Origin: Alphaproteobacteria bacterium
GTDB taxonomy: Bacteria; Pseudomonadota; Alphaproteobacteria; Bin95
Assembly: GCA_965205265.1 (NCBI GenBank)
Contig: CBDBGH010000003.1
Span: 160,001-224,000, forward strand
DNA length: 64,000 bases
Direction of reading: 5' to 3'
The translations under genes and the position numbers were made by a program. The notes under the pieces are model-generated. The model worked only from the letters and a program-made list of their open reading frames with translations, had not been told where the DNA came from and did not search any database. This document shows, one piece after another, positions 3,544 through 61,140 of this stretch. Every line of letters starts with the position of its first letter. The stretch's first letter is position 1.

Positions 3544-5153
<1,610 letters not shown>

Positions 5154-5275
5154 CGCATTGTTCCTGATAAGTGCTGGTAGCGGCGATGCGGCGCGGGCGC
5201 CGGACCGCTTCGGGGAAGCGTCATGGAATGTCATGTTCCGGCGCGCCGGGCCGCCTCCGCGTGGCTCGTTTCCAC

Positions 5276-5404
5276 GTCGCCCCGGACTCGATCCGGGGCC
5301 CATCCCTGACCGTTTGCGCCCGCCGCGGCCGTTCGAGAAAGGATTGGACCGCTCGCGCCTGCCGAGAGCGCCCGGGATGGGCCCCGGATCAAGTCCGGGG
5401 CGAC
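5276..5404. repeat. REP-like paired palindrome
   Basis: gtcgccccggactcgatccggggcccatc ... gatgggccccggatcaagtccggggcgac, inverted pair. Confidence 0.8.
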
Positions 5405-5509
5405 GGGATGGGTGCGGACCGCGCGCGCAAAACCCGGCAAATTCGATGTCTTCACAACCTCTTTCGAGGGGGCGACGAATGCGGGCGCGAGCGCCGGCCC
5501 ACTCCAGCG

Positions 5510-5815
5510 TCGTGTCATGGGATGTCATGAAATGTAATGGTCCGGGGCGAAATCGGCGCTTCCGGGCGGGTGGAGAGGGCGGTGGTCGGGTCAGGTAGGG
5601 GCATGGCGGCTCCTCGGTTCGGCTCGTGTTCATTCGGCACACCGCCCGGCTGTGGAGCGACCCTTTACCGCGCGCATTTGCGTGCGGGCGCGGGCGCGTG
5701 TCGGCGCCGGCGCGGTTCGCGCGCCTGATTGCCCGCGCGAGGCAGGCTGAGGACGCACTTCGCCTGTCGGCTGAACCGGAGTCGGTCCGCATGCGCGTCG
5801 GCGCGGGAAGATTGT
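5510..5815 (-). repeat. Dispersed structured element, copy B (core, RBS, 29-aa ORF 5515-5604, ATGACA boxes; no own promoter)
   Basis: Core homologous to 5995-6150, 47270-47435 and 60235-60400; GAGGAG RBS; ORF MPLPDPTTALSTRPEAPISPRTITFHDIP. Confidence 0.8.
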
Positions 5816-5819
5816 GGCC

Positions 5820-6215
5820 TGTCATGGAATGTCATATTTACTCACACTTTGTCATGGTAGTGACGGCGGAAGGCTTCCTGGCGGGAGGAGAGGGCGAGGG
5901 TCGGGTCGATGATGGGCATGGGCGCGGCTCCTTCGTTCCGGCCCGCGTCCGGCGCGGACGCCGGCGCGGGTTTGCAGACAGGCCGCCCCGGCATCGGAGC
6001 GACCCTTTATCGCGCGCATTTGCGTGCGGGCGCGGGCGGGCGTTAGCGCCGGCGCGGTTTGCGCGCCTGATTGCGCGTGCGCGAGGCAGGCGCAGGGCGC
6101 ACCTCGCCTGTCGGCTGAATCGGGGTCGTTCCGCACCGGGCCGGCGCGGGCGGGATGCGGTCCATGGACTCCGCTTCCCTCGGACCCATCATAGCACAAA
6201 CCGATAAATGTCAAG
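5820..6215 (-). repeat. Dispersed structured element, copy A (promoter, core, RBS, 25-aa ORF 5842-5919, ATGACA boxes); candidate ncRNA/leader
   Basis: TTGACA..TGcTATGAT; closing helix 6123-6133 with 5995-6005; GAAGGAG RBS; ORF MPIIDPTLALSSRQEAFRRHYHDKV. Confidence 0.8.
6188..6214 (-). promoter_or_regulatory. Sigma70-like promoter with extended -10, reading into copy A
   Basis: Minus strand TTGACA-N15-TATGAT preceded by TGn; same layout at 60438-60464. Confidence 0.6.
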
Positions 6216-6317
6216 TATAATTTGTGGAAAATTCCTATACAATCGAACAAATCGGGCGATGGAACTGTGGAAAACAATGCGGACGTGCCCCCGGCACAAG
6301 GCTGTCGAGGAAGTGCC

Positions 6318-6424
6318 GGTGAAGCAGAGGCCCGGCCCGGCCCGTCTTCGAGATGCCGCGCGACGACTACACCAAAGCCCTCCTCGCCGCCGCCTTCGAT
6401 CTTGAGGCGCGGGAGACGGAGTAG
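6318..6424 (+). repeat. Right copy of the yejF 3'-end direct repeat (degenerate gene fragment)
   Basis: Reads ..VFEMPRDDYTKALLAAAFDLEARETE* versus yejF ..VFEAPRDDYTKALLAAAFDLEAREAE*. Confidence 0.9.
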
Positions 6425-6502
6425 GGCGGCGCATCTCGCCTTTTTCCTTCGTATAGTTATCGGATAGTGATAACCTTGGATGCCATGACAGCGTCCGCCC
6501 CC

Positions 6503-6883
6503 ATGACGACATTGAAGATCGGAATCGCCGGGTACGGCCGGATGAAAGCGCGGACGATGGCAATCGCGCGGGGAGAGCACAAACCCTCCGGGGATGAGCC
6601 GATGGTCTGGTTCGCATCCGTCGAGAGCTTTGCCAGGGTGCTCTCCGGGCACAATCGCGAACTGCTGGCGGTGATTGTGCGGGAGCAGCCGGGTTCGCTC
6701 ACGGAGTTGGCGGCGCTGGCCGGGCGAAGCAAGTCGAACCTGTCGCGCACCCTCAAGACAATGTCGCGCTACGGCCTGGTGGAATTGGCGGCGGGGCGGC
6801 GCGGCGCGCTCGTTCCCCGCGTTCCCTACGACCGGGTAAGCCTCGACCTGCCGCTGACGGCCTCGCCGCGCGAGGCTGCATGA
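6503..6883 (+). CDS. HTH DNA-binding protein (COG4190-like, putative antitoxin-type regulator)
   Basis: MTTLKIGIA..WFASVESFARVLS..NRELL..SLTELA..GRSKSNLSRTLKTM winged-HTH pattern. Confidence 0.7.
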   Translation: MTTLKIGIAGYGRMKARTMAIARGEHKPSGDEPMVWFASVESFARVLSGHNRELLAVIVREQPGSLTELAALAGRSKSNLSRTLKTMSRYGLVELAAGRRGALVPRVPYDRVSLDLPLTASPREAA

Positions 6884-6916
6884 GGCAGCCTGCTGCGGGG
6901 CGGTATTTTTCGGCCG

Positions 6917-7618
6917 TCAATGCTCTTCGTCGCGGCGGACTTTGGACAAGGCGGACGAAATAAGGCCTGCCGGAACGGCCACAATTCCGAGACCGCACAT
7001 CAGGATTACGAATGTGAACGCCTTGCCCCCTGCCGTTACGGGATAAACATCGCCGTAGCCGACGGTCGTGAGAGTGGCGACAGCCCACCAGATACTGTGG
7101 AAGATCGACCGGAACGCTTCCGGCTGGGCCTCATGCTCGAAGTGGTATATTCCGGCGGCCGAGATATACAGAAGCACTGCCGTCGCCATGAAGAATATGA
7201 CGGCTTCTTCCCGGACTTCCGCAAGCGCCTTGCCGAATCGCTCCATCGTCCTGCTGTAGCGGGCCAGTTTCAGGATGCGGAAAATGCGAAGAAGGCGGAA
7301 TGCCCTGAGGGCGTAAAGGTCGATACCAAGCAGGAGATAGAAGGGCGCAATTGCGATCAGGTCTATCAGGCCGTAGAAGCTGAAGATATATCTCCATTTG
7401 TTCGGGGCTGTAACGATGCGCAGGCCGTATTCCAAAGTGAACAATACGGTAATTCCGATTTCCAGTGAGAAAAGAAAATGTTTCAGTTGAGGCGATAAAT
7501 CCGGCAATGTTTCGACCGACAGGGAAACAATCGAAATCGCAATGAGAACAAGAACCGCAATGTCGAAAATCCTGCCGGGAACGGTATCGGACTCTTGCAC
7601 GATTTTCCGCAGGTTCAT
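6917..7618 (-). CDS. Voltage-gated potassium channel / ion transporter (6TM)
   Basis: TTVGYGD selectivity filter; S4-like RAFRLLRIFRILKLARY; visibly lower GC than flanks. Confidence 0.9.
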   Translation of the reverse strand: MNLRKIVQESDTVPGRIFDIAVLVLIAISIVSLSVETLPDLSPQLKHFLFSLEIGITVLFTLEYGLRIVTAPNKWRYIFSFYGLIDLIAIAPFYLLLGIDLYALRAFRLLRIFRILKLARYSRTMERFGKALAEVREEAVIFFMATAVLLYISAAGIYHFEHEAQPEAFRSIFHSIWWAVATLTTVGYGDVYPVTAGGKAFTFVILMCGLGIVAVPAGLISSALSKVRRDEEH

Positions 7619-47204: not shown

Positions 47205-47603
47205 TTGACATATAGTGCATGCGGAGCAATATGGAACCGGAGGAAGGAAGCAGCATCCGGAGCCGCTTCCCGCCCGCGCCGGCGCGCATGCGGAACGACC
47301 CCGATTCAGCCGACAGACGAGGTGTGTCTTGCGCCTGCCTCGCGTGCGCGCAATCAGGCGCGCGAACCGCGCCGCCGCGAAACGTGCACGGGCGGGCGCA
47401 GGCGCCGGCGCGCATTACGCGCGAATCAGGGTCCCGCCGCCAGCCGGCCGGCGACGGGGCGGACGGAACGAAACAGGAGCAAGGTGAACAACCGATGCCG
47501 AGGACAGAGAGTCGCTGGAACCGAAGGGAATACCCGCAGCCCATGCCCGAACAGGCCGCAGGATATGTGCTGAGTGCATACAGATCATGACATTCCATGA
47601 CAC
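47205..47603 (+). repeat. Dispersed structured element, copy C (promoter, core, 31-aa ORF 47495-47590, ATGACA boxes)
   Basis: TTGACA 47205-47210; helix 47297-47307 with 47423-47433; GCAATCAG loop; ATGACA at 47587 and 47597. Confidence 0.8.
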
Positions 47604-59951: not shown

Positions 59952-60464
59952 TGTCATGGAATGTCATGCGATGTCATGTTCTGCATGCGTGGGGCTCATA
60001 TGCTGTAGCCGGTTCTGGCATGAAGGCCATCTATCGATCTGGCAGGGCCTTGCCCCGTTGCACGGTCGCTGGCCCTCTCCCGGCCTCTCCTGCAAGCGGG
60101 GGAGGAGAGTTCGAGCGTCCTGCCGACCTCCTCGAAACCGTATCCGTAAGCATTCTGCATGTCGTTCCTTCATCCCGTTTCGTTCCACTCCGTTCCCTTC
60201 TCCCTTCGCCCCGCCGCCGGGCTGACCGGCGCGGCGGGACCCTGATTCGCGCGTATCCTGCGCGCGCGCCCGTGCCGGCGGGGGCGCGTGTTTCGCGGCG
60301 GCGCGGCTCGCGCGCCTGATTGCCCGCGCGCGAGGCAGGTGCCGGACGCACTTCGCCTGTCGGCTGAATCGGGGTCGTTCCGCACCGGGTCGGCGCGGGC
60401 GGGAAGCGGTCCGCGCGGACTCCACTCCCTCGGACCCATCATAGCACATTTTCTGAGAATACAA
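59952..60464 (-). repeat. Dispersed structured element, copy D (promoter, core, short ORFs, three ATGACA boxes)
   Basis: TTGTAT-N15-TATGAT then GGGTCCGAGGGA as in copy A; helix 60366-60376 with 60238-60248; perfect TCGCGCGC/GCGCGCGA stem. Confidence 0.8.
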
Positions 60465-60480
60465 GTCCTATAGAGAAATA

Positions 60481-61140
60481 TTACTTGAATACATATCGGT
60501 ATAAACGAGGTTTGTTCCCGGCGCGCCGGGCTCTACCGTGTCGCGGACGAACTGGCGCACGGTGTCTCCAGTGGCCCTGCGGACGGCTACGGCGCGTATC
60601 CGGTTGGTCTTGCGGTCCCTTGATGTCGAGGATGGGCGCCTTGCCGCCAAGGCCGCCTCTGGAGGTCTCCTTGTGGCGTTTGGGGGAGGCGTTCTTGCGC
60701 TTGCGGCCGAAGTAGCTCTCATCGGCTTCGGCTGGGCCGGCGAACATGGAACCGGCCTCGTTCGCCCATGCCTCTCGGATGCGATGGAGCATGAACCATG
60801 CGGTCTTCAGCGTTACACCGATGTCTTTGGCGAACTGGAGAAAGGCGATCCCCTTGGGTTGGGTTATCTCCATGTGTATGGCGAAGGCCCATTTCTGCAG
60901 GGGAACCTTTGGGTTTTCGAGGAAGGATCCGACTTTGACGGAGAATGCGCGCTTGCAGTTATGGGAGGCCGAATGTCTTGCTGGCTTTAGCGGTGTTGGT
61001 GGAGCCGCAGTGTGGGCAGTATCGGCTGTCGGGCCACATGACGGATTCGAACCATGCTGCCGCGGCCTCCTCGTCGGGGAAGAGTTGTTCTAAGTGGAAA
61101 GGGCTATCACCTCCCGCTGGGTCTTGCCGTTGTCCGTCAT
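60481..61140 (-). pseudogene. IS1595 family transposase, frameshifted and 3'-truncated
   Basis: FPDEEAA..WFES..WP..CPHCGS Zn ribbon; KTAWFMLHRIRE; EADESYFG; VYTD; pieces lie in different frames with early stops. Confidence 0.88.

Follow-up and report, generated by a model that had tools for sequence, protein, structure and literature searches.

Small terminases are parts of the packaging machines of phages, gene transfer agents (GTAs) or satellites, and in SPP1- and P22-type phages the pac sites are repeated boxes located at or inside the small terminase gene, terS. A comparable arrangement of protein and repeats is that of lambda Xis, a small DNA-binding protein which acts on phased direct repeats. 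Satellites are known that use a TerS of their own to redirect the packaging motor of a helper phage (10.1101/2024.04.22.590561, PMC6739421). Here we describe a 64,000-nucleotide stretch of DNA (C3:160001-224000, hereafter the window) from an alphaproteobacterial genome of 5.7 Mb (68% GC, 98.98% complete by markers), in which positions 5514-6252 contain, on the minus strand and in tandem, copies A and B of a dispersed chromosomal element of ~1.27 kb, both with internal deletions. The only protein of the intact element is a small-terminase homologue in its N-terminal third, and the right end of the element is an array of phased CATGAC repeats.

The intact form of the element was identified by a BLASTN search with copy A, which found 41 places in the genome, seven of which ran past codon 21 into a long open reading frame (ORF). 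These seven elements, which we refer to as the parents, had 1228-1304 nt in common at 92-94% identity, and their flanks were unrelated. All seven had an intact ORF of 300-311 residues, the sole ORF of the element, preceded by a left end with a conserved promoter-like motif (TTGNNN-15-TGnTAnnAT), a leader of ~265 nt and a ribosome-binding site (RBS), and at 1.27 kb the unit is too short for another gene. The right end was of the type CCGACCATGACATTTCATGACATCCCATGACACG in five of the parents and disrupted in the other two, one of which had a single box beside an IS1595-family insertion and one no boxes. The initial annotation had interpreted two short ORFs of copies A and B as truncated TerS N-termini, internally deleted from a parent with a stand-alone terS-like gene, and had predicted that longer homologues would exist. 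The seven intact ORFs fulfil this prediction, and both copies align to the parent on either side of a deletion. As expected, none of the parents had a terL or portal neighbor, the shared unit being small and its flanks unrelated. The expectation that they would always carry the leader and the boxes was also supported, as all seven had the leader and an end in the boxes or directly ahead of them, apart from the disruption of the right end in 2/7.

The parent ORF matched the Pfam family PF03592 (Terminase_2) with an E of 4e-13 and 50.6 bits, above the curated cut-off of 26.1, residues 11-85 aligning with profile positions 2-73 of 141. It also matched PHROG 51, “terminase small subunit” (E 5e-14); a search of NCBIfam returned nothing. 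A profile of 20 family members gave three hits in the PDB, all of them to the small terminase (G1P) of SF6 (best E 1.3e-4). In the AlphaFold2 model (mean pLDDT 62) a helix-turn-helix (HTH) at residues ~11-60 had a pLDDT >90 and was followed by long helices (pLDDT 60-75) and then by a low-confidence helical or disordered C-terminal half. The best Foldseek rows for this model were SF6 3zqq and 4zc3 (for 4zc3, TMt 0.82, rmsd 0.8 Å and 40% identity over 50 residues), and the next were the small terminases of PaP3, NV1 and E217, with no row at E<=0.001; as regards the ring-forming central oligomerization domain of TerS, full-length SF6 TerS gave a TMt of 0.37-0.39 against the model. A search of 1.84 billion representative sequences found 38 clusters at E<=1e-30, beyond which ordinary TerS proteins of 130-200 residues aligned with residues ~10-115 at 35-42% identity. 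Together, the Pfam, PHROG, PDB and fold matches indicate that the N-terminal third of the protein (residues ~10-115) is a small-terminase homologue with an HTH of the SF6/SPP1 type. Residues ~116-300 are family-specific and well conserved, and the family alignment has a mean column identity of 68% with invariant motifs throughout. Like the G1P-type TerS of SPP1 and SF6, the element protein thus has a homologous N-terminal HTH and then a helical segment; unlike phage TerS, it is about twice as long and has a family-specific C-terminal half. Peptides A and B on their own matched no Pfam family, and their TerS nature is visible only via the full-length parents.

The second constant feature is the box array. 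In the window, GTCATGGAATGTCAT with up to two mismatches occurs seven times compared to an expected 0.03. The genome as a whole has 136 occurrences of CATGAC-N4-CATGAC, distributed over 85 sites that are without exception on C3. When the spacer was varied between 0 and 15 nt, most lengths had 0-7 occurrences, the higher values being those of N10 (18), N14 (43) and N15 (23), and the excess at N14 fits runs of three boxes. The right end of the element consists of two to four direct CATGAC(A) repeats with a 10-bp period, and the stop codon of the parent ORF lies inside them. Among the ORFs extracted from other genomes, 17 of 18 also ended in boxes, and the terminal histidine encoded by the boxes was kept in 20 of 20 aligned proteins, with the adjoining aspartate in at least 90%. 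The repeated boxes beside or inside the element gene are reminiscent of the pac boxes of SPP1-SF6 type phages, and we consider the CATGAC boxes to be the candidate site for the TerS-like protein, based on the co-occurrence of gene and boxes. Only four of the 85 box sites were inside predicted genes, in a rough gene call covering 59% of C3, and relative to the next gene 45 were co-directional and 40 opposed; no replichore bias or gene-orientation bias of the boxes was found. This placement of the elements is as expected for selfish DNA.

Several other sequences adjoin or interrupt the boxes. The motif TGGAGTGGGCC(CC..GGACAGT..) begins 7-8 nt past the last box at no fewer than ten sites, at least (e.g., C3 647575, 1271067, 1576883 and 2146006, and window 5501-5511), and the short repeat GGGGCTTATATGGATAGGTTGACAAC is inserted directly after the CATGA of a box at several sites. 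The idea that the TGGAGTGGGCC motif is connected with tRNA genes was rejected, as no tRNA gene adjoins any of its 79 sites. One site of each repeat was checked for a transposase behind it and none was found; host genes follow TGGAGTGGGCC. Other short repeats and an IS1595-family element are likewise inserted in or beside boxes, the latter as an ISXO2-like transposase gene (C3:1919500-1922560) inside the right-end boxes of the parent at C3:1923750. Three box sites at C3:0-43 kb recur at 4,633,190 and 5,413,292/5,413,819 with identical printed context (~180-215 nt), and boxes are entirely absent from the 0.8 Mb between 4.63 Mb and 5.41 Mb. The estimated contamination of the genome is 7.28%, and the recurring sites may represent an assembly duplication or a foreign segment.

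Most copies of the element have lost the ORF. About 40 shorter derivatives in the genome keep only the leader and the boxes: the 46 leader-bearing BLAST hits comprised the seven parents and 39 others, and in 34 of those 39 the boxes (CATGAC-N4-CATGAC or near) were 20-1040 nt downstream in the same orientation. The direct repeats that relate copies A and B in the window span 95 nt and 57 nt (88% identical) and 58 nt (78% identical). The two peptides that had been reported for them were both present on the minus strand, exactly as written, at the positions in Table 1; an AGGAG-type RBS precedes each ATG (in copy A it is AAGGAG, on the minus strand at 5928-5933 and separated from the ATG by 8 nt), the first 16 residues have 11 identities as read by eye, and the tails of both ORFs enter the box arrays, all as first described. 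The copy A ORF consists of the first 21 codons of the parent (..HY) followed by the right-end boxes, with CACTAC joined to CATGACAAA. In copy B roughly codon 16 is fused to the last ~10 parent codons (..TITFHDIP), a different junction. The left end of copy A has TATGAT at 6188-6193, with a TG one base upstream, a 15-nt spacer, TTGACA at 6209-6214 and the left-end motif ATTTGTTCG at 6244-6252.

The copy A junction was found at five loci in this genome, at six in its closest relative (G014) and in none of 15 other genomes of the genus, and also as a loose end in sponge metatranscriptome contigs. This distribution indicates that the deleted form originated within this species group, where it subsequently multiplied. 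The sister copies at C3:2603187-2603972 and C3:3934513-3935344 have the last ~280 nt of the ORF behind 110-190 nt of filler, and contigs of other populations showed further internal deletions that skip 358 and 222 nt. The short ORFs end in HDKV-stop or HDKR-stop or read through into unrelated sequence, depending on the copy, and because the ends differ from copy to copy we read the ORFs of A and B as remnants and not as genes. That they are functional micro-proteins, such as dominant-negative N-terminal TerS-like peptides, seems to us scarcely credible. Both copies do have a good RBS and ATG, the same 21-codon head occurs at five loci, and by hand translation C3:2603187-2603972 holds an in-frame mini-ORF of ~135 residues, lacking the HTH, in which the first 21 residues are connected by a linker with some 80 conserved residues of the C-terminus (..DWLYQRRNNYTELHDPW..HDIS). 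However, besides the differing ends, copy B has another junction and no promoter, the 21-residue head ends before the HTH (residues ~12-50) is complete, and the peptides have no Pfam signal.

A further group, the S elements, resembles the parents in having the left-end motif and the promoter-like motif, followed by a 5' hairpin and the leader core. Their interiors are short and unlike those of the parents, fall into three classes, each with an RBS and an ATG, and are followed by a subterminal motif of their own (CATGCCCGAAACGGCTACAGCATATGCGCC..CGCATGCAGAT) ahead of the CATGAC boxes. Two S elements are in the window and ~34 further loci are on C3.

Based on these features we tentatively favor an account, to which we would give somewhat less than even weight, in which a TerS-derived protein binds the phased boxes and recruits a partner that copies or recombines units of leader and boxes. 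The terminase-derived protein would be the sequence-specific DNA-binding factor of the element family and would bind the CATGAC boxes cooperatively, by analogy with small terminases on repeated pac boxes. Its conserved C-terminal motifs would recruit the partner, which would be part of the recombination or replication apparatus of the host or else an enzyme with its gene elsewhere, and this partner would copy or recombine the unit. We propose that the ORF-less derivatives (A, B and the S elements) would be carried in trans because they have retained the cis sites, copies A and B themselves probably being non-functional remnants. The arrangement would also have a parallel in the excisionases, or recombination directionality factors, in that an HTH protein is accompanied by direct repeats about one helical turn apart at what is here a candidate edge of a mobile unit. 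Unlike the element protein, whose only Pfam match is Terminase_2, the Xis families show no sequence similarity to it, and no integrase partner was found.

The leader had been described as structured, and this description was upheld in part. Its sequence is strongly conserved: between genomes, identity was 0.84-0.85 in the leader core, ~0.5 in the promoter region and 0.2-0.3 in the flanks. Compared with a synonymous divergence (dS) of ~0.55, these values indicate that the leader core is constrained. The evidence for a conserved fold was weaker. RNAalifold of 21 parent-type leaders gave 42 pairs, only three with a compensatory change, and 46 leaders of all types (46 of 47 references; L008 was left out, and L029 had been dropped earlier as its end anchor was not found) gave 17 pairs, one of them compensatory. 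A helix scan found many alternative GC helices with little covariation, and an Rfam search of both strands of window 4500-7500 had no matches at E<=1. G-U pairs far exceeded A-C pairs in some helices, a weak hint of RNA on the element strand. One local hairpin had five different complementary stems in the S subfamilies and was poorly formed in the parent type. The promoter-like motif was conserved across copies, genomes and ORF-less units.

Homologues of the parent protein were numerous, with ~366 proteins at E<=1e-3 among 8000 candidates scored. The top 120 were 269-376 residues long at 63-97% identity, several being on the same contig, and one was named “terminase small subunit [Alphaproteobacteria bacterium]”. 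Relatives were encoded in 106 stretches of species-representative genomes, and the 77 loci that were kept were all from uncultured Alphaproteobacteria or “Rhodospirillaceae” metagenome-assembled genomes (MAGs), with up to 12 or more gene copies per contig and often, in short-read MAGs, at a contig end. Within the genus the protein was present in 13 of 17 genomes, this one included, each with 136-379 box pairs. The four genomes that lacked it had 2 (G001), 1 (G003), 0 (G013) and 38 (G008) pairs, and a reversed box pattern used as a control had none in any genus genome. No match at E<=1e-25 was found in 300 other genomes sampled across the class, with at most seven candidates scored per genome. 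The sequencing runs that held the element were sponge, coral and reef metagenomes.

Selection was analyzed with 25 ORFs, the seven from this genome and 18 of 20 fetched from other genomes, two loci of G015 having been excluded. The ratio of non-synonymous to synonymous substitution (dN/dS) was 0.14 among the copies of this genome (0.02 in the N-terminal part and 0.23 in the C-terminal part) and 0.32-0.39 between genomes. These sequence comparisons showed that the parent protein is kept by purifying selection. The copies clustered by genome, the seven from this genome forming a clade with a support of 1.0. The parent at C3:2069416 has its right junction and flank in common with a copy in G005, and the same flank adjoins copies in G002 and G015. 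A copy is thus closer to the other copies of its own genome than to its positional counterpart in a different genome, which points to gene conversion or to lineage-specific bursts.

Ten more distant homologues (45-58% identity, 332-484 residues) were of a different kind, being single genes without the long leader. No terminase neighbors were found beside them, and several occupied conserved host positions: mnmE-X-mnmG in L078 and L081, X followed by mnmG in L075 and L077, and oxoprolinase-X-PPIase-argJ in L071 and L076, X being the homologue. About six of the ten had the promoter-like motif upstream, as read by eye. Box pairs or triples form the ends of the ORFs of L071, L076 and L081 (..HDIS in L071 and L076) and a degenerate pair that of L072, and pairs are located 110-300 nt downstream of L075 and L078; no boxes were found at L077, L080, L097 and L098. 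The presence of boxes at distant homologues indicates that the pairing of protein and boxes is old. Specific to the genus are the long leader and the copy-number burst. A TerS-like unit lies between mnmE and mnmG in Rhodospirillaceae MAGs. In this genome a distance of 1 Mb separates mnmE from mnmG, and an S element is located directly after mnmE in the same orientation (C3:2939062-2940906).

These observations bear on an explanation in which the protein is a domesticated host regulator or nucleoid-type factor and the units of promoter, leader and boxes are its dispersed targets, for instance small transcription units closed by a protein roadblock, whose copies grew in number by recombination and gene conversion and not by transposition. 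The single genes at conserved host positions, part of them with boxes, the S element after mnmE, the several intact copies per genome that are under purifying selection and evolve in concert, and the conservation of the promoter-like motif in ORF-less units would all fit. We nevertheless consider this explanation unlikely. The four genus genomes without the protein also had no unit after mnmE, which indicates that the system is dispensable, and three of them are nearly box-free. The absence of matches at E<=1e-25 from the 300 other genomes sampled in the class and the lack of an orientation preference toward neighboring genes also speak against it, and the frequent internal deletions, tandem or nested copies and insertion sequence (IS) insertions look like the decay of selfish DNA.

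The resemblance to phage packaging genes was pursued in the whole genome and in viral contigs. The seven Terminase_2 matches in the genome were all parent copies. Genome-wide searches for PF03237 (Terminase_6N), PF03354 (TerL_ATPase), PF04466 (Terminase_3), PF05876 (GpA_ATPase) and the HK97 capsid (PF05065) gave no matches, and that for Phage_portal gave one 99-residue, sub-cut-off fragment on contig C2; positive controls were detected in each search. Among 2.9 million viral contigs the closest relatives were four loci at 28-36% identity, restricted to query residues ~9-92. Phased CATGACA boxes were found at ten viral loci, nine of which, at 26-52% GC, look unrelated. The tenth (L176:2831-3040; GC 0.65) has a 64-residue HTH_17 ORF with three phased CATGACA boxes at its end, followed by a gene for a fusion of ParB_N and DNA methylase, and is a single parallel in a phage context. 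The element thus differs from phage TerS genes in having neither large terminase nor capsid in its genome nor a close viral-contig relative, and in its dispersal as seven copies, every one of which has a promoter-like motif and a long leader of its own.

An alternative, raised in the initial annotation, is that each unit is a pair of terS and pac that hijacks or interferes with packaging when a pac-type phage or a GTA-like particle infects. The protein would bind the boxes and its C-terminal tail would capture the incoming large terminase, so that host DNA adjoining the elements would be packaged or phage packaging poisoned. The true small-terminase homology of the N-terminal third, the pac-like location of the boxes at or inside the gene, the precedent of satellites with their own TerS, the viral HTH_17 gene of L176 and the occurrence of the hosts in sponge and coral metagenomes are consistent with this, and the C-terminal extension, which is long and conserved and contains short acidic and aromatic motifs, could serve as a tail that binds a partner. 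We regard it as improbable, however, because the genome has no large terminase, capsid or complete portal, the few viral relatives are remote and match the N-terminal part only, and the multiplication to dozens of loci, the retention of promoter and leader in ORF-less copies and the single-gene homologues at conserved host positions would be left unexplained. The element resembles phage-inducible chromosomal islands (PICIs) and PICI-like elements (PLEs) in being a chromosomal, non-phage unit with a terS homologue and a presumed cognate site. It is unlike them in its size (1.27 kb versus several kb or more), in its multiple copies in one chromosome and in lacking integrase, replication, regulation and capsid-remodelling genes, and the missing integrase and replication genes are also points against a satellite. 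To our knowledge the element is far smaller than any known satellite, and we know of no helper phage.

Returning to the account in which the TerS-derived protein and a partner spread the units, we compared the element with ISs and miniature inverted-repeat transposable elements (MITEs). Multiple copies with defined ends and unrelated flanks were found, as in those elements. Further likenesses are the dispersed copies with sharp ends, of which a few are full copies with one ORF and many are deleted copies that keep the ends, the intergenic location in both orientations, the breaking of short-read assemblies and the position at synteny breakpoints. In contrast to ISs and MITEs, neither terminal inverted repeats nor a target duplication were found, the left “end” of the element is a promoter and leader of 350 nt, and its right end is made up of direct repeats. 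A transposase (DDE, HUH, serine, tyrosine or DEDD) was not detected either by family or by fold, the sole family match of the ORF being Terminase_2.

The window locus is intergenic (5157-6328), downstream of an ABC-transporter ATPase gene whose stop is at 5153. In G009 this site is uninterrupted, with GAGTAG directly followed by GGCGGCGC. In the present genome the site contains 1.17 kb of element sequence, after which the final 99 nt of the ABC gene recur as a 5'-truncated copy with 91% identity to the original, and in G005 a longer, decayed second copy is at the same place. At this one locus the insertion looks like Campbell-type homologous integration of a circular molecule bearing a portion of the gene, and not like a target duplication. 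For the parent at C3:2069416 and the S element at window 47258 no empty site was readable, as their flanks are apart in most relatives (rearrangement breakpoints).

Several results weigh against our favored account. The one empty site found is that of a whole composite insertion bracketed by a duplicated gene end. No terminal inverted repeat was present between the left and right ends, and no flanking direct repeats beyond chance length were found at the seven parents, where, the termini being undefined, a short duplication may be missed. The protein has no catalytic domain, the AlphaFold2 model being all-helical with a C-terminal half of low confidence, and this half matched no Pfam, NCBIfam or ESM Atlas family (for that of one homologue, P0100, the best ESM Atlas score was 0.77, below a useful level). 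As one parent has a positional counterpart in G005 and yet the copies cluster by genome, the similarity of the copies could be due to gene conversion between old ones, with no need for recent transposition. Lastly, we infer the promoter from conservation only. A scan of 5100-6500 for consensus promoters returned no sites, which we attribute to the 15-nt spacer. The element is present in one sponge metatranscriptome, in which the depth profile of the contig parallels that of DNA runs, and it was not found in one run labelled as possibly RNA (contig-level runs).

The coordinates of the features in the window are collected in Table 1. GC-rich palindromes like the one at 5275-5405 flank many elements elsewhere.

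Table 1. Features of the window related to the element and its insertion site.
Feature	Position	Strand	Details
Copy A, whole	5821-6252	-	left-end motif, promoter-like motif, leader, RBS, short ORF, three CATGAC-type boxes
Copy A, left end	6188-6252	-	conserved in alignments
Copy A, leader	5920-6187	-	5' UTR-like, ~268 nt, including RBS 5928-5933
Copy A, truncated ORF	5842-5919	-	25 residues, MPIIDPTLALSSRQEAFRRHYHDKV; RBS-proximal ATG within listed ORF 5842..5994
Copy A, right-end CATGAC(A) boxes	5821-5826, 5831-5836, 5851-5856	-	
Copy B, whole	5514-5807	-	begins inside leader, directly after copy A right end; without promoter and left end
Copy B, leader	5558-5807	-	without promoter
Copy B, truncated ORF	5515-5604	-	29 residues, MPLPDPTTALSTRPEAPISPRTITFHDIP; within ORF 5515..5640
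Copy B, right-end boxes	5514-5539	-	5514-5519, 5524-5529, 5534-5539: two CATGAC and one CATTAC, 10-bp period; then TGGAGTGGGCC
Solo box pair	5220-5235	-	CATGACATTCCATGAC; 67 nt past ABC gene stop
Repetitive extragenic palindrome (REP)-like inverted repeat	5275-5405	.	CGTCGCCCCGGAC..GTCCGGGGCGACG; 32-nt arms, 97% complementary
Intact ABC-transporter ATPase gene, 3' end	5058-5156	+	first copy of 99-nt repeat; stop at 5153
Second ABC gene 3' end	6329-6427	+	5'-truncated, 91% identical; contiguous with downstream flank
S element	47258-47601	+	leader 47258-47439, boxes 47587-47601
S-type derivative	59953-60491	-	promoter and leader 60232-60491, boxes 59953-59977

A full-text search of the literature, to the extent that the texts were accessible, found no description of a multi-copy, stand-alone terS-like element. 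In the present case a terminase-derived protein is under selection in several copies per genome, although no packaging genes were detected in the genome. It comes with a promoter-like motif, a leader and cognate-looking repeats of its own, and ORF-less derivatives are present alongside it in dozens to hundreds. It is possible, if rather doubtful, that this is an undescribed kind of element whose sole protein is a domesticated small terminase that recognizes the CATGAC repeats at its own end, either for a copying process without a transposase or as a chromosome-wide network of pseudo-pac sites. In the first case the TerS-like protein would be the specificity subunit for a borrowed enzyme. In the second, sponge-associated alphaproteobacteria would divert phage packaging motors onto host DNA, for defense and gene transfer. 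In practical terms, the elements fragment assemblies and mark rearrangement breakpoints in this uncultured sponge and coral lineage, and ORFs annotated as “terminase small subunit” could be mistaken for evidence of a prophage. If the protein drives the spread of the units, it would represent a new type of specificity factor in the biology of mobile DNA; if it acts on incoming phages, the element would be a minimal, dispersed packaging decoy.

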